This document shows positions 3,443-25,388 of a stretch of 32,000 nt of DNA, one piece after another. The DNA is from Geotalea uraniireducens Rf4 (GTDB lineage: Bacteria; Desulfobacterota; Desulfuromonadia; Geobacterales; Geobacteraceae). The stretch is taken from the NCBI RefSeq assembly GCF_000016745.1, contig NC_009483.1, forward strand, positions 4,410,001 through 4,442,000, read 5' to 3'. Under the pieces are notes generated by a model that saw only the letters and a program-made list of their open reading frames with translations, searched no databases and was not told where the DNA came from. Position 1 is the first letter of the stretch. Each line of letters begins with the position of its first letter. A program made the position numbers and the translations under genes.

Positions 3443-3491
3443 GGGCAACCCTGTGTGGTTGCCCTGATTGGGCGGCCACATGGGGCCGCCC
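3443..3491. repeat. Twin GC-rich perfect hairpins (REP-like), in the 70-nt gap directly after a stop codon
   Basis: GGGCAACC-ctgtgt-GGTTGCCC (3443-3464) and GGGCGGCC-acatgg-GGCCGCCC (3470-3491). Both have 8-bp perfect stems and 6-nt loops. Neither strand has a U/T tract afterwards. Confidence 0.8.
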
Positions 3492-4607
3492 CTACTCTTC
3501 ACTCTTCACTGCCTTATAAATGTCCAGCGTCTCTCTGGCGGCCGCCTCCCAGGAAAAGGACTTCGCCCGGCGACGTCCCTGCTCCCGCATGGCCGTCGCC
3601 GTTTCTTCATTTTCTAGCACTCTGAGAAGCGCCGCGGCAACCTCCTCCACGGCCATGGGAGGGACGGCAATCCCCGCATCGCCCACCACCTCCGGCAGGG
3701 ATGTGGTGTTGGACGTTATCACAGGCACGCCGCACGCCATGGCTTCCAAGGGCGGCAGGCCGAACCCTTCGAAGAGCGACAGGTAGACGAAAACCCGTGC
3801 GCCGTCGTAAATAAAGGGGAGTTCCCCGTCGGGGACAAAACCGGTGAATACCACCTCGCCGTCGAGATTGAGCTCCCTGATCCGGCTGAACAGCCTGTCG
3901 TAAAGCCACCCCTTGCGACCGACGATGACGAGTTTCCCCGCAAATGCCCCCTTGCCTTTCAGCAGGCTGAACGCCTCGATGAGGGTGTCCAGGTTCTTTC
4001 GCGGCTGGATGGTCCCCACATAGAGGATGTAATCAGCCGGCAGCCCGTATTTCCCCCTGACGGCCGCGCCGGCAGCGGCATCACGGGACTCGATCATGGC
4101 AGGATCGAAACCGAGCATGATCGCCCTGATCTTTTCCGGCGCCACCCGGAAATCGGCCATGATCTCCTGCCTGGCGTGTTCCGAATCGGTGATGATGAAA
4201 GCGCTCCTCCTGGCGGCGATGGGTATCTGCAGCCGCCAGTAGATCCGCGCAGCCAGCTTCTCCGTTTCCGGGTGCTTGATGGGGATCAGGTCGTGCAGGG
4301 TGACCACCACCGGGCATGGTGCGAAATAGGGGATCGCGCTCTTCGGACAGTGGAGGATGTCCACCCGCTCCCTCTTGCAGGCAAGGGGGAGCAGCACATG
4401 CTCGCGCCAGAGCCGGGTGAGCGGGTTTTTGCCCGGCAGGACCATTTCCCGTGCCGCGGGGAATCTGCCCAAATGAACGGGATCGTTGTAGAAAACAATA
4501 TACTCGTTTTCGCGGTCAATGCGGAGCAGCGCTTCAAGCAGCCCCAATACATACGTCCGCGGCCCCCCTTGGGTGGAAATGGTTGAAGCATCAATGGCGA
4601 TACGCAC
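3492..4607 (-). CDS. GT4-family (GT-B) glycosyltransferase
   Basis: '[20 protein letters not shown]' EX7E-type motif. N-terminus '[11 protein letters not shown]...'. I choose GTG at 4607-4605, which has AGGAAA 6-7 nt upstream. The track ORF start at 4703 would overlap the upstream gene by 86 nt. Confidence 0.85.
3495..3510. repeat. Short heptanucleotide array (CTCTTCA)x2.3; AGTGAAG on the coding strand
   Basis: Units at 3495-3501 and 3502-3508, plus 'ct'. Encodes the last codons (...VKSEE) immediately before the TAG at 3494-3492. Confidence 0.7.
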
Positions 4608-6895: not shown

Positions 6896-7852
6896 CTAGC
6901 CATTGCGCCGCGTCCTGTCCACAAACCGGCGGCGAAAGATGGAGTAGAGCATACGCAGGTAGCGGATGGCCAGAAATAGCAGCACCGGCCGGCAGGGGCA
7001 ATAGTCGCGGTAGAGCTTGTAATTGGCCCGGAAATAAAAGGGGGAGCGGTAACTGGTCAGCATCTCTCTTACCCGCTCCCTGTTAAGCGCCTCGGTCCCG
7101 CTTGACACCGCAGTCCTGTTGTACACAACGCTTTTAGGCTCCGTAAGGAGGCGATAGCCGCGCCGCCGCGCCCTTAGTGAGAACTCCGCGTCCCCCTGGT
7201 ACTGGGGGCAGTTCTCCCGGTCGAAAAAACCGATCTCGGCGAACGCCGCCGCCGGAATCAGGGTGGAACTGCCGTGCAGCCAGTCGCAATCGCTGGTCCG
7301 GTCGAAATCAATCAGGTCGCGGCGGTTGTTGCGGTCCCTTATCTCCCCCACGTACCAGTTTATGACGCCGCCGAAGGAAAAGATGAAGTTCCGGTCCGAG
7401 TAGTCGTACATCTTCGAGGTAACGAGGCTTTTGGGGTGGCTCCGGGCGGTCTCCACCAGAGGCTCGATGAAGTCCGGCTCCACCACGTTGTCGTTATTTA
7501 TGGCCAGGATAAAGTCACCGCCCCGCCGCAAGGCCTCCCGGACACCGAGATTCGTGGCCCCCGACCACCAGAGGTTGCCGTCGCCCCTAACGATAGACAC
7601 TTGGGGAAAGCAGGCGGCGATGGCCTCCCTGGAGCCGTCGGTCGAGCCGTCATCTACGACGATGACCTCCAGATTCGGATACGTTGCGCACGCCATCGAT
7701 TCCAGAAAGGTAAGGGTTTCGTCCTTGCCGTTGTGGATCGGTACTACCGCTGCGACCTTGGGGAACCGAGGTTCGAGGAACGAGGTCCGAGGAACGAGGT
7801 ATTCACGCCGACACCAAACCCTTTGCCAGGTAGTCCTTGAACCCATCACCAT
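6896..7852 (-). CDS. GT2-family glycosyltransferase
   Basis: 'AAVVPIHNGKDETLTFLES...LEVIVVDDGSTDGS' GT-A motif. The only in-frame starts are ATG 7852, GTG 7849 and ATG 7846. ATG 7852 has AAGGA 6 nt upstream, supplied by the last ATAAAGG unit. The N-terminal ~30 residues are partly encoded by CCTCGNN heptamers. Confidence 0.8.
   Translation of the reverse strand: MVMGSRTTWQRVWCRREYLVPRTSFLEPRFPKVAAVVPIHNGKDETLTFLESMACATYPNLEVIVVDDGSTDGSREAIAACFPQVSIVRGDGNLWWSGATNLGVREALRRGGDFILAINNDNVVEPDFIEPLVETARSHPKSLVTSKMYDYSDRNFIFSFGGVINWYVGEIRDRNNRRDLIDFDRTSDCDWLHGSSTLIPAAAFAEIGFFDRENCPQYQGDAEFSLRARRRGYRLLTEPKSVVYNRTAVSSGTEALNRERVREMLTSYRSPFYFRANYKLYRDYCPCRPVLLFLAIRYLRMLYSIFRRRFVDRTRRNG
7767..7801. repeat. 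Degenerate heptanucleotide array (CGAGGNN)x5 inside the 5' end of the GT2 gene
   Basis: cgaggtt, cgaggaa, cgaggtc, cgaggaa, cgaggta read directly. 'cgaggaacgagg' occurs twice (7774-7785 and 7788-7799) and is the exact reverse complement of 7902-7913. Confidence 0.9.
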
Positions 7853-7859
7853 TCCGCGT

Positions 7860-7922
7860 CCTTTATCCTTTATCCTTTATCCTTTATCCTTTATCCTTTA
7901 TCCTCGTTCCTCGTGCCTTTAT
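7860..7922. repeat. Heptanucleotide tandem array (CCTTTAT)x6 + CCTCGTT + CCTCGTG + CCTTTAT; ATAAAGG on the coding strand
   Basis: Six perfect units at 7860-7901, then three more heptads to 7922. Contains the TAA stop of gmd (7893-7891) and the SD for the downstream GT2. Confidence 0.97.
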
Positions 7923-8886
7923 AGAGCTCCATCTCGCTCTCCACCATCTCGCGGATGATCTCACCCAAGGATTTTGTCCTGGCCCAGTGCAAACGGGTGC
8001 TGATTTTTGCCGGATTGCCGCACAGCTGCACCTGTTCCGCCGGGCGGAAGAACTTCGGGTCCACCTTGACATACCTTTCGTAGTCAAGGCCGAGACATGA
8101 AAAAGCCGTCGCCACAAACTCCCGCACGCTGTGGGTTTCGCCGCTGGCAACAACAAAGTCCTCCGGCGCATCAGCCTGGAGCATCAGCCACATGGCATTC
8201 ACATAGTCAGGTGCATAGCCCCAGTCCCGGTATGCGTCCAGGTTGCCGAGGGTCAAGGTATCCTGGAGCCCAAGTTTGATCCGCACTGCCGACGAGACGA
8301 TTTTCCGCGTCACGAACTCGTAGCCGCGGCGAGGAGACTCATGATTGTAAAGGATGCCGGTGCAGGCGAACATGCCGTACTGGCTCCGGTAGTTCTTCAC
8401 CAGGTGATAGCCGGACACCTTGGAGATGCCGTAGATGGAACGGGGATTGAACGGTGTCGCCTCGTCCTGCGGCGCATTGGTCACATTGCCGAACATCTCG
8501 CTAGTGCCCGCGAAGTAGAAACGGCAACCGGGCGCGAATTCCTTGATAGAAGCGAGGAGATAGTGGGTGCTGTTGACGTTGTTGTTCAATATGGAGATCT
8601 CATCCTCGAAGGAATAGCTGACGAAGCTGGAGGCGGCCAGGTGGTAACACTCATCGGGAATGACGTCCTTCACCGTCTTAATGATAGAGAGGACGTTGTC
8701 CAGGGAAGCAACGTGGAGGTGGATCCTGTCCGCAAGATGGCCAATGTTCTTCAGCTTGTGGGCGGTATCCTCGATGGCTGTCCGCCGGACGATGCCGTGG
8801 ACTTCATAGCCTTTCGCCAGGAGCAGTTCCGCCAGGTATGAGCCGTCCTGACCGGCCAAGCCGGTAATGAGCGCTTTTTTCTTCAT
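7891..8886 (-). CDS. gmd: GDP-mannose 4,6-dehydratase (short form), copy 1
   Basis: 'MKKKALITGLAGQDGSYLAELLL', 'GILYNHESPRRGYEFVTRKI', 'RDWGYAPDYVNAMWLMLQ', 'FFRPAE' are canonical Gmd motifs. The last ~9 codons are encoded by the heptamer array. Confidence 0.92.
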   Translation of the reverse strand: MKKKALITGLAGQDGSYLAELLLAKGYEVHGIVRRTAIEDTAHKLKNIGHLADRIHLHVASLDNVLSIIKTVKDVIPDECYHLAASSFVSYSFEDEISILNNNVNSTHYLLASIKEFAPGCRFYFAGTSEMFGNVTNAPQDEATPFNPRSIYGISKVSGYHLVKNYRSQYGMFACTGILYNHESPRRGYEFVTRKIVSSAVRIKLGLQDTLTLGNLDAYRDWGYAPDYVNAMWLMLQADAPEDFVVASGETHSVREFVATAFSCLGLDYERYVKVDPKFFRPAEQVQLCGNPAKISTRLHWARTKSLGEIIREMVESEMELYKGTRNEDKG

Positions 8887-19411: not shown

Positions 19412-19454
19412 ACATTTTCCGTTTTTGCCATTGAAGATATAAGGCCTTTCACCA

Positions 19455-19482
19455 CCGACCGCCGACTGCCGCCCCCCGACCG
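19455..19482. repeat. Degenerate 4-unit relic of the CCGACCG heptamer family
   Basis: ccgaccg, ccgactg, ccgcccc, ccgaccg. Starts 6 nt downstream of the ddhA stop (19491-19489). Same orientation as the right arm of the 24220-24372 array. Confidence 0.6.
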
Positions 19483-20967: not shown

Positions 20968-20975
20968 TAAAAAAT

Positions 20976-21060
20976 CTGGGAACTGGGAACTGGGAACTGG
21001 GAACTGGGAAGTCCATTACCGATCCCCGATCCCGGATCCCAGTTCACCGGTTTTCTTCAG
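20976..21060. repeat. Composite element copy 1: (CTGGGAA)x5 + conserved 31-nt G/C-run core with (CCGATCC-like)x3
   Basis: Five perfect units at 20976-21010. Core 'taccgatccccgatcccggatcccagttcac' is at 21017-21047. The TAA stop of the DUF2304 gene (21018-21016) lies between array and core. On the coding strand the array is followed by ATTTTTTATT. Confidence 0.95.
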
Positions 21061-21396
21061 TTTCTCGAACTCGTGACGCATGAGCGCATTATCCTGCACA
21101 AGGTCCTTCAGCTGGTCGGAGAGCCGGGAAATCTTGATGGAAAACTGCACCGCCAGCAGGATGAGGAAGATGATGGAGCCGAAGAAGAGCGTCGAAGTGG
21201 GGAGTTCGGCGCCGACAAGGTGGGTAAGGGCCACCAGCCAGTCGTACTTGATGACCAGGATGAACATGGTGAAGCTGGTGACGAGCCAGAGCACCGAATA
21301 CTCCTCCCGCAGCCGTTTTTTGCGCACCATTTCGATGGTGAATACGAACACGAGAAGACTGACAACGAGGGCGAATATCTGCTGCTTTATCGGCAT
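21016..21396 (-). CDS. DUF2304-type small integral membrane protein
   Basis: 'VRKKRLREEYSVLWLVTSF...' followed by hydrophobic helices and an amphipathic tail. The classic pairing directly downstream of a GT2 gene supports the call (3-nt gap). Confidence 0.75.
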   Translation of the reverse strand: MPIKQQIFALVVSLLVFVFTIEMVRKKRLREEYSVLWLVTSFTMFILVIKYDWLVALTHLVGAELPTSTLFFGSIIFLILLAVQFSIKISRLSDQLKDLVQDNALMRHEFEKLKKTGELGSGIGDR

Positions 21397-21399
21397 TTC

Positions 21400-22113
21400 C
21401 TACCTCCGATACAATTGACGGTTCCTGAGCAGGGTAACGACTATGGAAAGACACATCTTGAACATGTAATAAAGCGGTTTGAAACCGCTGTGCATGGTCT
21501 TCCCCGCAGCATTGGCAAACATGCGCACCGGAATTTCCCTGATCCTGAATCCGGCCAGGTTCAGGGTTATCAGCATATCCGCATCGGGATAATCGCAGGG
21601 AAAGACGTCGGTGGTGAAAAACCGCATGACGTCGCGGTTAAAGGCCTGGTAGCCGGAAGTGGGGTCGGATATGGTCCGGCCGATCAGGGAGGAGACCAGT
21701 TTGCGAAAGAAGAGTATCCCCAGCCGGCGGGAAAAGGATGGACGGTAGCTTTCCACCCCCAGAAAACGCGAACCGACGACAAAATCCGTGTCTCCGGCTA
21801 CAACCGGCCTCATCAGCTCGGGGATGAATGCCGGGTCATGCTGGCCGTCGCCGTCGATCTGCACCAGGAAGTCGTAACCCTTGGCGTAAGCGAACTTGTA
21901 AGCGGTCTGGATCGTCACGCCATATCCCATGTTGAACGAGTGTGAAACGACGATGGCTCCTGCCGCCGCGGCTTCCCGGGCAGTGCTGTCTTTGGAGCCG
22001 TCATTCACCACCAGGATATCGAAATCGGGGACAACGCGCCGCACGTTTTCGATGACACGGGCAATCACCCCCCCCTCGTTGTAGGCAGGTATCACGACAA
22101 TGGTTTTGGACAT
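21400..22113 (-). CDS. GT2 polyprenyl-phosphate glycosyltransferase (GtrB/DPM1/ArnC-like)
   Basis: 'IVVIPAYNEGGVIARVIENV...ILVVNDGSKDST', 'LVQIDGDGQHDP' (DxD). Short soluble-plus-C-terminal-tail format typical of lipid-carrier sugar synthases. Confidence 0.8.
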   Translation of the reverse strand: MSKTIVVIPAYNEGGVIARVIENVRRVVPDFDILVVNDGSKDSTAREAAAAGAIVVSHSFNMGYGVTIQTAYKFAYAKGYDFLVQIDGDGQHDPAFIPELMRPVVAGDTDFVVGSRFLGVESYRPSFSRRLGILFFRKLVSSLIGRTISDPTSGYQAFNRDVMRFFTTDVFPCDYPDADMLITLNLAGFRIREIPVRMFANAAGKTMHSGFKPLYYMFKMCLSIVVTLLRNRQLYRR

Positions 22114-22127
22114 TCAGAAACCTTTTT

Positions 22128-24116
22128 TCAATCCGGGAACTGGGAACTGGGAACTGGGTTTTTACCGATCCCCGACCCCAGATCCCCGTTCACTGACTTC
22201 AGCAGCTTTGCGGCAAACTCCGGATTCAGCGACTTAAGGATTACATATTGGTCGGTGGCCTTCTGCGTCTCCTTGCTCGCCGCATAGGCCAAGCCCAGAT
22301 TATAGTGGGCCTCGCTCAGGCGTGGATTCATGGCAATGGATTTTTCATAATTATCTATGGAGTCAGCAAGCTGTCCCATGGAATCATAGGCCAATCCAAG
22401 GTTGTTATAGCCGAGGGCAAACCATTCGTTCTGGTATGCGGCGTTCATGCCCATGCTCGCATCAAACAACTCATAGGTCGGGCTGTAACGGCCGGCATAG
22501 GTCCCGAGCTGGCCAAGCGCTATGCCGATATTGTTCCACGCATCGGGATGCCCCGGAGAAATGCCTATGGAGCGGATCAACGCAGGTATCGCCTTTTTCG
22601 GCTGATGCTTCTTCAAATAGGCATAGGCCAGGTTGTTCCACGGCCGCGACTTGTCGGGGGACTTTGCCGCCACATCCTGCCAGAGGGTCGTCTCGTCCTG
22701 CCAGACCATGTTGCGCCTGAAGGTTGCCGTTGCAAGGGAGACGGCGACCAGCAGCAGGGCGATGAATGCTATTCCGGCAATCTGTGGCCTCCGCACAGCC
22801 AATCGGTCCACCGCCAGCACCACGGCCGTTGACAGCGCCATGAAAAATCCGATCGACGGCAGGTAGACCCTGTGCTCGAAGATAACGTCAACGATCGGGA
22901 TGACGCTCGACTCAACCGCCAGGGCGATGAAAAACCAGAAAATGCCGAAGGCTGTGAGGCGGTAAACGGCGGTCGGCGGTCGGTGGTCGGTGGTCGATGG
23001 TTGATGGTAAAAGGCGGTCGGAGGTCGGTGGTCGGTGGTCGATGGTGAACTATCCAACGTAGAACGTAGAACGTAGAACGTAGAACGATAAACAAAATAA
23101 ATCCCCACGCCGAAGATCGCCAGCAGCAGCAGGAAAGAGAGGAACACAGGGGCATTGAAAAAGGAGTGGGCCACCGGAAAGTCATGGTCAAGGTTCTGCC
23201 CTACCGGGAAAAACAGCAGCCTGAGATAGGTGACGATCACCCGGAACTGGGTGAAGAGATAGTCAAGCCGTGGCATCTCCGTCTGGACCATGGTTGCCGC
23301 CTCCAGCCTCCCCAGGAGCTGTCCCGCCCCGGAGGAGCCGAGCATGCTCAAAGGGATGATGGCCAGGGTGAGGAGAAATGCACCGATGAACATGACCCGC
23401 TTGGCGATGCTCCCCCTGAAAAACATGAACTCGTAAAGAATCACCGTGAACGGCAGGGTAAAGGCGATCTCCTTGGTTTTCATGGCAAGGACCGCCGTTA
23501 AGAGCGACAGGAGATAGCAGGCTGCGGCAAACAGCTTTCCCCGCCGGCCGCCCCCCCCCTGCTCCAACCGCGCCATGATGTAGAGGACGAGGGAACCAAT
23601 GTAGAACATGGCTGCAAGTGAAGTGAAGCGCTGGACAATGTAGGTTACCGCCTGGGTCTGGAGCGGATGGGCAACGAAGAGGAGCGCCGCAAACAGCGCA
23701 ATCGGTCCGCTGAAGCGCCCCCTCTCCCCCTCTTCCGCCGGAGCGAGCAACGGGGTCCTGAAAGTGAGGGTCACCAGGGTATAGACAAGGAGGGCGGTCG
23801 CAAGATGGATCGCCAGATTGACCAGATGATAGCCGAAGACATCGAGACCGTTCAGCCGGTAATTGACGGCAAAGGTGAAGTCCCCCACCGCCCGGCTCCC
23901 CTTGACGGCGAAGGGGTCGGCGAACGGATCCACGTTTCTCACGACCGGGTTGCCGAGGATGTTGGCAATATCGTCGAAGTTGAAGGTGGCGGTGAAGGTG
24001 TTGGAGTAGGCCAGAAGCCCAAGGGAGATAACGAGGAGAAGATGAAGCACGGTCGCAAACCGCGTCCGCCGGTAAACAAAGTCACTGAATCTGCTTGTCA
24101 TGGATAGAGAGTTCAC
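22128..24116 (-). CDS. PMT/TMTC-like GT-C membrane glycosyltransferase with C-terminal TPR domain
   Basis: 'FNFDDIANILGNPVV' acidic loop after the first helix and 'EHRVYLPSIGF' match PMT_2/TMTC-type enzymes. C-terminal TPR-like repeats include 'WNNLAYAYLKKHQPKKAIPALIRSI', 'AWNNIGIALGQLG', 'YNNLGLAYDSMGQLADSIDNYEKSIAMNP' and 'AHYNLGLAYAAS'. GTG start at 24116 has AGGA about 7 nt upstream. Confidence 0.75.
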   Translation of the reverse strand: MNSLSMTSRFSDFVYRRTRFATVLHLLLVISLGLLAYSNTFTATFNFDDIANILGNPVVRNVDPFADPFAVKGSRAVGDFTFAVNYRLNGLDVFGYHLVNLAIHLATALLVYTLVTLTFRTPLLAPAEEGERGRFSGPIALFAALLFVAHPLQTQAVTYIVQRFTSLAAMFYIGSLVLYIMARLEQGGGGRRGKLFAAACYLLSLLTAVLAMKTKEIAFTLPFTVILYEFMFFRGSIAKRVMFIGAFLLTLAIIPLSMLGSSGAGQLLGRLEAATMVQTEMPRLDYLFTQFRVIVTYLRLLFFPVGQNLDHDFPVAHSFFNAPVFLSFLLLLAIFGVGIYFVYRSTFYVLRSTLDSSPSTTDHRPPTAFYHQPSTTDHRPPTAVYRLTAFGIFWFFIALAVESSVIPIVDVIFEHRVYLPSIGFFMALSTAVVLAVDRLAVRRPQIAGIAFIALLLVAVSLATATFRRNMVWQDETTLWQDVAAKSPDKSRPWNNLAYAYLKKHQPKKAIPALIRSIGISPGHPDAWNNIGIALGQLGTYAGRYSPTYELFDASMGMNAAYQNEWFALGYNNLGLAYDSMGQLADSIDNYEKSIAMNPRLSEAHYNLGLAYAASKETQKATDQYVILKSLNPEFAAKLLKSVNGDLGSGIGKNPVPSSQFPD
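22134..22202. repeat. Composite element copy 2: (CTGGGAA)x3.6 + conserved 31-nt core
   Basis: Units at 22134-22158. Core 'taccgatccccgaccccagatccccgttcac' at 22163-22193 matches copy 1 at 28 of 31 positions by hand alignment. The flanking 'cttcag' is also shared. Here the GT-C/TPR ORF reads through the whole element. Confidence 0.9.
22968..23089. repeat. Intragenic heptanucleotide arrays: two blocks of GGCGGTC/GGTGGTC/GATGGTN units, then (GAACGTA)x4-5
   Basis: Block 1 at 22968-23009 (6 units), 'aaa', block 2 at 23013-23047 (5 units), 'aactatc', then caacgta + gaacgta x3 + gaacgat (23055-23089). Encodes '...STFYVLRSTLDSSPSTTDHRPPTAFYHQPSTTDHRPPTAVY...'. Confidence 0.95.
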
Positions 24117-24219
24117 CCGGAAATCCTGTCAGAATTGAAGGTAATGATCATTTGAAAATAGCAAAAAACTATTTTTGCCACGAATAACACGAAAAGCATC
24201 TAATGTATAGGCCCTTTTT

Positions 24220-24372
24220 GGCGGTCGGCGGTCGGCGGTCGGCGGTCGGAAGTCAACCCATAGGACTACAGTCGGCGGTCGGCGGTCGGAAGTCAACCCA
24301 TCGACCATCGACCATCGACCATCGACCATCGACCACCGACCACCGACCACCGACCACCGACCGCCGACCGCC
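24220..24372. repeat. 153-nt composite heptamer palindrome: (GGCGGTC)x4 ... (GGCGGTC)x2 ... (TCGACCA)x5 (CCGACCA)x3 (CCGACCG)x2
   Basis: Units mapped by hand. 'ggcggtcggcggtcggaagtcaaccca' is directly repeated (24234-24260 and 24274-24300). 24357-24372 is the exact reverse complement of 'ggcggtcggcggtcgg', which occurs in several registers in the left arm. Starts 2 nt after the GT2 stop. Confidence 0.97.
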
Positions 24373-24374
24373 TC

Positions 24375-25388
24375 TCATCTATCCAGCAATTCCTTGAAAG
24401 ACATCCGGTATCGCTGCAACAGGCGGGCCATCTCCCTGCCTGAGATTCTCCTCTTTTCCATCACCAGCGCCCGTTTTTTCAGCATGGCCGGCGCACCGCA
24501 CAGTGCGTCCCTGGTCCCTTTGGCGATCGCCTTGAGCAGGGCATTGCGGGAGCCGCTTGCAAGGAATTCCCCACCGGAGCCGCTGGCGAAAATGACCGCC
24601 CGCGCCTGCTCCAGGTAGCGGACCAGGGTGAAAAACGGAACCAGCAGCAGCATAGCGAGGGGAAAGCACTTCAACGCCACCCAGTAATGGTTACGTTCCA
24701 CCAGATAGAGCTTGAACGGCGAAAAGACCCCGCCGGTCCTGGAATACTTGTGATAGACCACCGCCTGCGTGGCGAGGAGCGCTTGCCACCCCGCCAGCCT
24801 GCACCTTAGCCCCAGGTCGGTATCCTCGGCATAGGCGAAAAAATCGTCGTCGAAGAAACCGGTCTCGTCCAGCATTGTCCGCCGGTAGAGGGCAACGCAG
24901 GCGCTGGGGAAGAGGATCTCCTCAACCTCTGCCATATTCATGGTTGAATAGCGCTTGAGGCGGAACCTCCCGCGGGACATGCCGTCGCGGCAGACGCCAT
25001 GGCCGAGGGAATCGATCCGGTCCGGCTCGTCAAATGAACAGATCCGGCTCCCCACCATCCCCACCCGCGGGTCGCTGTCCGCCACGGCAACAATGGTTGC
25101 CAGCCAGTTTTCATCAGCCCTGGTATCGTTGTTGAGGGCAACGATATACTCGCCCGAGGCATGGGTAAGGCCGACGTTGTTGCCGGTGGCAAAGCCGGTG
25201 TTTTCCTTGAGCTCGACGAGCTTCACCCAGGGGTAGCGCTCACGGAGAAACCCTACAGACCCGTCGGAAGAGCCGTTATCGACGATGATCACCTCGAAGT
25301 CCTGGAAGCTCTGGGCCGACAGGCTGTCCAGGCAGACAGCCAGGTGCTCCAGGCCGTTCCAGTTGACGATTATTATGGAGACTCTCAT
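24375..25388 (-). CDS. GT2-family glycosyltransferase (rhamnosyltransferase-like)
   Basis: 'VSIIIVNWNGLEHLAVCLDSL...FEVIIVDNGSSDGS...NTGFATGNNVG'. ATGA overlap with the upstream gene. Confidence 0.88.
   Translation of the reverse strand: MRVSIIIVNWNGLEHLAVCLDSLSAQSFQDFEVIIVDNGSSDGSVGFLRERYPWVKLVELKENTGFATGNNVGLTHASGEYIVALNNDTRADENWLATIVAVADSDPRVGMVGSRICSFDEPDRIDSLGHGVCRDGMSRGRFRLKRYSTMNMAEVEEILFPSACVALYRRTMLDETGFFDDDFFAYAEDTDLGLRCRLAGWQALLATQAVVYHKYSRTGGVFSPFKLYLVERNHYWVALKCFPLAMLLLVPFFTLVRYLEQARAVIFASGSGGEFLASGSRNALLKAIAKGTRDALCGAPAMLKKRALVMEKRRISGREMARLLQRYRMSFKELLDR

Follow-up and report, generated by a model that had tools for sequence, protein, structure and literature searches.

The 32,000-nucleotide (nt) stretch of Geotalea uraniireducens Rf4 analysed here (contig NC_009483.1, positions 4,410,001 to 4,442,000; hereafter the window) contains a 662-codon open reading frame (ORF) whose product combines a membrane domain resembling GT-C glycosyltransferases with a C-terminal tetratricopeptide repeat (TPR) domain, and which carries arrays of seven-nucleotide units deep within its coding sequence. 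We conclude that this repeat-bearing segment is probably an in-frame copy of the genome's own heptanucleotide repeats, sitting in a permissive and probably cytoplasmic linker of the protein, where it is tolerated rather than functional. An earlier note on this DNA, made from the letters alone, had considered both an on/off switch and a tolerated expansion, and it is the latter that the evidence favours. An attractive but unsupported story, that of a phase-variable glycosyltransferase or a self-glycosylated loop, is thereby removed, and an ordinary account takes its place, namely repeat DNA that is tolerated within a dispensable linker. More widely, the same three loops of one protein family hold genome-specific 7-nt arrays in Geobacterales and Nitrospirota, nearly always in frame.

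The repeat segment and its insertion into the host gene

The segment occupies positions 22961-23087 and lies in frame on the minus strand within the ORF at 22128-24116. The earlier note was right that a segment of this kind is present, although the segment is slightly wider than the 22968-23089 given there. The ORF is open across the arrays, and its translation is exactly the peptide quoted there. Tandem Repeats Finder resolves the segment into two arrays (Table 1). The left array (23056-23087) is AACGTAG repeated 4.6 times at 100% identity, and these 32 nt are the longest perfect tract in the segment, the remainder being made of mixed variant units. The right array (22961-23046) is reported with a 45-nt period (1.9 copies, 95% identity, score 158) and, at the level of the heptamer, as 11 units at 78% (GGCGGTC/GGTGGTC/GATGGTC on the plus strand). 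Each 45-nt block runs CCATC(G/A)A, CCACCGA, CCACCGA, CC(T/G)CCGA, CCGCC and then (T/G)TTTA, and the two copies (22961-23001 and 23006-23046) are 95% identical to each other. Because one orthologue (L004) has a single block only, the pair in the window is read as a duplication, and one that preserves the reading frame.

The earlier note had linked the segment to the repeat family of the intergenic array at 24220-24372, and this was borne out. When the arrays of the segment are compared with the 24298-24372 arm of that array, they show 86-94% complementarity over 35-49 nt. The 14-nt pattern GGYGGTCGGYGGTC, allowing at most one mismatch, has 18 matches in the window, distributed over four sites, where shuffled sequence would lead one to expect 0.06. 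The other hallmarks of a bacterial heptanucleotide array are likewise present, with at least three head-to-tail 7-nt copies, a unit family found at several sites that are mostly intergenic or near gene ends, and a length and sequence that vary among close relatives (see contig L088 below). The window array is thus a further member of a known bacterial repeat kind. The overlapping alternative-frame ORF at 22769-23191 exists as had been described. The remark that no stop was seen in any of three frames adds nothing as evidence, because 7 mod 3 = 1 and an ORF that crosses at least three units therefore reads every phase.

Compared with the baseline of the family, the segment is inserted sequence, as the earlier note had supposed. 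In an alignment of 18 homologues it coincides with a gap of variable length, flanked by the conserved helices ...GxGxYxxYRS and RLxAFGIFWFF. These flanks were located by tblastn in 167 fetched loci and the window, giving 189 gene copies, 180 of them distinct; the loci are the best-scoring matches of each scan (the best 160 of about 1000 loci), and the copies are phylogenetically related rather than independent. The flanks stand 120 nt apart in the window. Elsewhere they are separated by 0 nt in nine of the 180 distinct copies (Bacteroidales, Omnitrophota and others), by 1-24 nt in 74 (mode 21 nt), by 25-48 nt in 37 and by 49-289 nt in 60 (Geobacterales, Nitrospirota and others), so that the loop is unexpanded (0-24 nt) in 83/180. 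The orthologous loops are themselves repetitive, with other lengths and other units, rather than non-repetitive and equal in length to that of the window. Peaks in loop length at multiples of 21 nt (21, 63 and 84) are suggestive only, being confounded by related sequences, and no claim is based on them.

A family-wide hot spot for heptamer arrays

The homologous loop is a hot spot across the family, and many relatives carry the heptamer units of their own genome there. All nine of the closest loci have heptamer arrays in this loop, with differing units (Table 1). The loop DNA, 7.2 kb in all, holds 26 period-7 arrays that score at least 44 in Tandem Repeats Finder, compared with 48 in the 639 kb elsewhere, a density about 48-fold higher in the loop. 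Among the 60 loops expanded to 49 nt or more, 38 were counted as carrying arrays, a figure that becomes 43 at a lax threshold and 33 at a score of at least 34. The 71 loop arrays comprise 51 distinct units. A unit common to the loop array and a non-loop array of its own few-kb locus was found for 28/66 loop arrays, compared with 5.3 +/- 2.4 (maximum 13) when loop arrays were set against random other loci; each genome therefore places its own heptamer family in the loop.

Two further loops, homologous to residues ~119-135 and 183-195 and predicted to lie on the same cytoplasmic side, also collect arrays. They account for nearly all of the 69 arrays found in 166 kb of gene body upstream of the main loop, and only seven arrays occur in the 112 kb that span the last helices (helix 9 on) and the TPR domain. 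Alignments of three Nitrospirota paralogues (L013, L104 and L030) show in-frame insertions at all three loops. The simplest reading is that whatever hairpin or repeat DNA circulates in a genome is accepted in the linkers but not in the helices, the TPR domain or the periplasmic catalytic loops. In the literature searched we found no account of arrays settling repeatedly in the same loops of a single protein family in different phyla, and no description of genome-specific units and near-perfect frame maintenance in such loops.

Several Nitrospirota copies also carry palindromic elements of C-runs and G-runs at the same loops, which are not heptameric and are translated in frame as 'PP..(K/R)GG'. 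An apparent rule that the G-rich arm is always 5' in hairpin-type loops was dropped, as 12/18 is unconvincing.

The host protein and the position of the loop

The product of the host gene is 100% identical to a G. uraniireducens 'tetratricopeptide repeat protein', and the name 'protein O-mannosyl-transferase' appears in some JGI records only. Pfam returned TPR matches only; residues 1-474 had no Pfam match at E values up to 10, and a profile of the N-terminal domain had none among PDB sequences. Sequence profiles therefore did not link the protein to PMT, PMT_2, DUF1736 or a solved GT-C enzyme. Two AlphaFold models (predicted local distance difference test score, pLDDT, 79) show 11 membrane helices, and Foldseek, which found TPR proteins only for the full-length model, placed ArnT first (5ezm, E 9e-3) for the separately modelled N-domain, followed by Pmt1-Pmt2 (6p25_B), EmbB and PglB; these top matches have probabilities of 0.84-1.0 but low TM-scores of 0.34-0.44. 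Residues F45, D48 and D49 are invariant in 18-22 homologues and belong to an FxFDD motif that, as in GT-C enzymes, sits in the first outer loop. The modelled protein, which has a multi-helix membrane domain and an acidic DD/DxD motif in the first extracytoplasmic loop, is likely a member of the GT-C group.

The insert occupies the loop between two transmembrane helices (residues ~345-385), and pLDDT is below 50 for residues 357-380 in both models. The earlier note had spoken of the invasion of a conserved enzyme core, a description that does not fit these models, in which the repeat site is a disordered inter-helix linker. The topology check proposed in that note was also run: a count of 11 helices, with an N-in/C-out arrangement and a basic N-terminus, puts the loop on the cytoplasmic side by prediction, and the baseline loop sequence is basic (YRSR, KRYR), which is consistent with the positive-inside rule. 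GT-C enzymes act on the periplasmic side, across the membrane from this predicted position of the loop.

Turnover and the spread of the arrays

Turnover of the arrays is very fast and proceeds by block duplication, change of unit number and whole-arm replacement, as composite in-frame events. The clearest comparison is with L088, a metagenome contig obtained in a follow-up protein-based scan, whose gene flanks are 97.1% (5') and 95.3% (3') identical to the window in nucleotide sequence, with no indels. Its loop measures 156 nt, compared with 120 nt in the window, and shares the spacer CGTTGGATAGTTCACCATC. On the left, (CGGTCGG)x4 replaces (CGTTCTA)x4, a change of 3/7 positions in every unit at equal length; on the right there are about 16 units of the CCGACCA type. 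The two arms of L088 pair with each other (z = -5.9), and in the intragenic copy of the window the complementary arm has been lost or was never present. An exact 23-nt flank search of metagenome contigs for strain-level alleles found none. Outside the loop, L088 has an upstream intergenic hairpin (1160-1320, compared with 24220-24372 in the window) with far fewer units, and the 3' end of its gene (3460-3500, compared with 22128-22193) carries GGCGGTC-type heptamers rather than GGGAACT/CCGATCC.

We propose the following course of events. Arrays would spread within a genome by slippage and by recombination or conversion between arrays. Those that land within genes would persist only if they are in frame and free of stops, and only at sites where additional residues do the protein no harm. 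The ~40-residue peptide, rich in serine, threonine and proline (S/T/P), would then be a by-product of the unit sequence (CCACCGA reads PPT/TTD/HRP), and it would act as a neutral linker, neither switch nor substrate.

Alternative explanations

It is possible, although unlikely, that the arrays are actively copied into a few loop sites by a process other than slippage, such as a cassette-like replacement of arms, in at least two phyla and with each genome using its own units. If so, this protein family would be a natural, frame-constrained reporter of the origin and spread of heptanucleotide repeats. In a weaker version of the idea, the arrays may serve an RNA- or DNA-level function inside these operons. 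Whichever mode of spread applies, a site at which selection for the frame filters every change could help to measure the step sizes and copying modes of such arrays.

Unlikely, too, is a functional nucleic-acid element within the coding sequence, in which hairpins or binding sites for a heptamer-recognising protein would regulate transcription, mRNA stability or the pausing of translation between transmembrane segments. Arrays do recur at the same loops across phyla, 26/62 expanded loops fold better than shuffles (z < -2, down to -8.5), and the intergenic relatives are very stable hairpins, the region 24205-24385 folding at -120.3 kcal/mol (z = -10.4). However, the array of the window itself is unstructured (z = +0.9 against shuffles), more than half of the expanded loops are without a significant hairpin, the loop is unexpanded in 83 of the 180 copies, and the units, of 51 kinds, are not conserved. 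A promoter and terminator scan found nothing in the intragenic array and no terminator-like site, and an Rfam scan matched it to no family. The only regional Rfam matches, over 24221-24364 and 20977-21066, are sub-threshold plant and animal microRNA-precursor models on intergenic hairpins, which is a generic artefact of long hairpins.

A contingency locus, the switch of the earlier note, is improbable. Slippage of the heptamers would here switch or truncate the glycosyltransferase-like protein and so produce phase-variable surface glycans, as in neuO (AAGACTC; Escherichia coli K1 prophage CUS-3), which likewise has 7-nt units within the coding sequence of a surface-glycan-modifying enzyme, and in which a full-length product requires an added length divisible by three, three units making a 7-residue repeat. 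The mechanical premise holds, as the earlier note had stated: the gain or loss of one unit in either array brings stops at residues 357-446, so that the TPR domain and the conserved ESS...FEHRVYLPS region are lost. The gene moreover lies in a glycan biosynthesis cluster, a setting typical of phase-variable genes, and close relatives differ in array length. What is missing is the substantial OFF fraction expected among genomes. The loop is in frame in 178/180 distinct homologous copies and in 40/41 copies with clear period-7 arrays, whereas 42 of 64 complete genomes (65.6%) are OFF for neuO (PMC13001214), and the comparative data therefore oppose use as a switch. If the ON rate were the 34% of neuO, the probability of finding 40/41 in frame would be ~8e-18. 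Nor is there a long uninterrupted mutable tract: the perfect tract here reaches 4.6 units, compared with 3-53 units in neuO (PMC13001214), where 20 is the commonest repeat number. The single long pure tract of neuO stands at the 5' end of its gene, and the arrays described here are short, mixed and in mid-gene. Furthermore, the relatives differ by frame-preserving composite changes (the 45-nt duplication, arm replacement) and not by single-unit steps.

The two exceptions to frame maintenance are both second paralogues in 'MFD' metagenome-assembled genomes, presumed to be long-read assemblies, and one of them has several further frameshifts outside the loop. The longest loop array, that of L030 (6566-6836; 289 nt, an AGGACTG arm and then a CTCAGTC arm, folding at -143 kcal/mol), contains an internal stop and is not in frame, and it gives the switch a point in its favour. 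Another apparent frame variant, P0012 (722 aa), was set aside, as its divergence has nothing to do with the loop and falls in the TPR part, so that the contig is probably chimeric or frameshifted.

Very improbable is a selected peptide, that is, an S/T/P-rich functional linker or a substrate of glycosylation or phosphorylation (the earlier note had pointed to O-glycosylation), for although the 41-residue loop is 49% S+T+P and disordered in the models, this composition results from the unit sequence and shows no conservation (the peptides of orthologues, RNEERGS/SSFLAP, TFNVQRS, TNHQSPI and others, are unrelated), the loop is just 3-10 residues long in many members of the family, and an O-glycosylation acceptor would be expected to be both conserved and periplasmic, where this loop is predicted to be cytoplasmic, opposite the catalytic side.

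Several points nonetheless weigh against a tolerated, non-functional insertion. The topology of the loop is a predicted one, and its neutrality is something that we infer. The choice of loci by best score may under-sample frameshifted copies, and the out-of-frame L030 could be either an assembly error or a paralogue that is truly inactivated or OFF. That arrays recur at the same three loops in two phyla could also point to a DNA- or RNA-level function, and the replacement of a whole arm at equal length is hard to explain by slippage alone. If tolerated repeat DNA is nevertheless the right account, it carries a warning for annotators, namely that loops of this kind, and C-terminal tails such as those described below, are repeat-derived and not functional motifs.

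Comparison with known repeat systems

Heptanucleotide repeat families lying between and within genes have been described in G. metallireducens (PMC2700814). The Gmet_H4## elements of that genome (GGGACCG x4; Aklujkar et al. 2009, PMC2700814) come from the same bacterial order as the window, but their unit sequences differ and a regulatory role was proposed for them, and neither a frame constraint, nor turnover between orthologues, nor a conserved site of insertion within a single protein family is described in the paper. More broadly, heptamers are reported as the over-represented class of long simple sequence repeats (SSR) in bacteria; they are found preferentially between co-directional genes and in the vicinity of stop codons, in some cases as inverted pairs, and close relatives differ widely in the length and sequence of their arrays (PMC4692102, PMC4679880). 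Examples are the GGGAATC repeats of Xanthomonas and Nostoc (PMC4692102) and the TAACTGA repeats of Beggiatoaceae (PMC4679880). The arrays of the window show the same junction pattern as these heptameric SSR and short tandemly repeated repetitive (STRR) sequences. Such repeats are, however, reported to be under-represented in coding regions, whereas here they are concentrated in the loop-coding segments of one membrane-protein family. A resemblance can also be seen to repetitive extragenic palindromic (REP) sequences and bacterial interspersed mosaic elements (BIME), which are genome-specific, hairpin-forming intercistronic repeats that are sometimes translated at gene ends, as are the tails at 22130-22193 and 21016-21040; those elements consist of a single palindrome, in contrast to the tandem 7-nt arrays that make up the arms here.

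Other arrays and genes of the window

The period-7 arrays of this genome stand mostly at gene junctions, often as hairpins with inverted arms, and the same family also occurs within a gene. Tandem Repeats Finder reports 14 such arrays in the window, 12 of them intergenic or within ~50 nt of a gene end and typically, at the junctions, inverted-arm hairpins (a further one at 20971-21054); only the two arrays of the segment are found well within a gene, at a distance of 839-1070 nt from either end of it. The features are collected in Table 1.

Table 1. Repeat arrays and genes of the window, and arrays in homologous loops of relatives.
Feature	Position	Strand	Description
Host gene	22128-24116	-	662 codons; 11-helix membrane domain resembling GT-C enzymes, C-terminal TPR domain
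Left array	23056-23087	-	(TCTACGT)x4.6 on coding strand, perfect; encodes STFYVLRST; Tandem Repeats Finder
Spacer	23047-23055	-	Non-repeat, separates the two arrays; part of CGTTGGATAGTTCACCATC, common to L088
Right array	22961-23046	-	Two 45-nt blocks; encodes SPSTTDHRPPTAFYHQ and PSTTDHRPPTAVY
Intergenic heptamer hairpin element	24220-24372	-	Upstream of host gene; (GGYGGTC/GATGGTC)n and (GACCGCC)n arms
Second heptamer element	22130-22193	-	(CCGATCC)n/(GGGAACT)n; translated as last ~20 codons of host gene, NGDLGSGIGKNPVPSSQFPD
(CTGGGAA)n/(CCGATCC)n element copy	20973-21047	-	3' end of DUF2304 gene; last 7 codons, ...GSGIGDR
Short GGCGGTC-family array	19451-19482	-	At gene junction
GT2 gene	21400-22113	-	237 residues; adjoins host gene, synteny in relatives; resembles polyprenyl-phosphate sugar synthases (PpgS-like)
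DUF2304 small membrane protein gene	21016-21396	-	Conserved synteny
Loop of 91% orthologue (L001)			(TCTACGT)+(AACTCAC); (TCTACGT) array at same place as left array of window
Loops of 87% and 81% orthologues			(GGAACGA/GGTTCGA)n then inverted (TCCTCGT)n
Loop of another of the nine closest			(TTCAACG)x5
Loop of G. toluenoxydans			(TTCGAGG)n+(TCACCAA)x4
Loops of two others of the nine closest			CCACCGA-type units
Loop of Candidatus Sulfobium (Nitrospirota)			GGCAAGG.../CCTGTCA
Further-loop arrays, Nitrospirota paralogues	L013 3300-3420, 3560-3700; L104 520-700, 850-900; L030 3380-3440
Palindromic non-heptamer elements			Loops of L033, L038, L111, L115, L044 (second copy); first loop of L013

The genes of the window, all encoded by the minus strand, belong to a glycan-biosynthesis cluster that includes GT2 and GT4 genes, and at the orthologous loci the host gene is always followed by the GT2 gene and the DUF2304 gene. 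The top NCBIfam match of the GT2 gene is PpgS, at 101 bits, below the cut-off of 370. Together the three genes resemble three-component periplasmic glycosylation modules, which combine a GT-C transferase with a small membrane protein and a synthase of polyprenyl-phosphate sugars.

One composite (CCGATCC)n/(GGGAACT)n hairpin element was seen twice in the window, at 22130-22193 and 20973-21047, and the C-terminal tails of the host and DUF2304 proteins differ in close relatives. The tail NGDLGSGIGKNPVPSSQFPD of the host protein is missing in the orthologues P0002 and L088, and the DUF2304 protein has 126 aa in the window, compared with 119 aa in most orthologues.

The orthologous glycan clusters of L003 (484-837) and L005 (7056-7436) contain small genes with a 23S_rRNA_IVP/bAvd-like four-helix-bundle domain, near which no reverse transcriptase was seen. 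In the window, an intercistronic element at 7740-7930 has (AAGGATA)x6.6 and GAGGAAC units in one arm and (CCTCGTT/CCTCGGA)n in the other, and it overlaps the 3' end of the ORF at 7891-8886 and the apparent 5' end of the ORF at 6896-7852.

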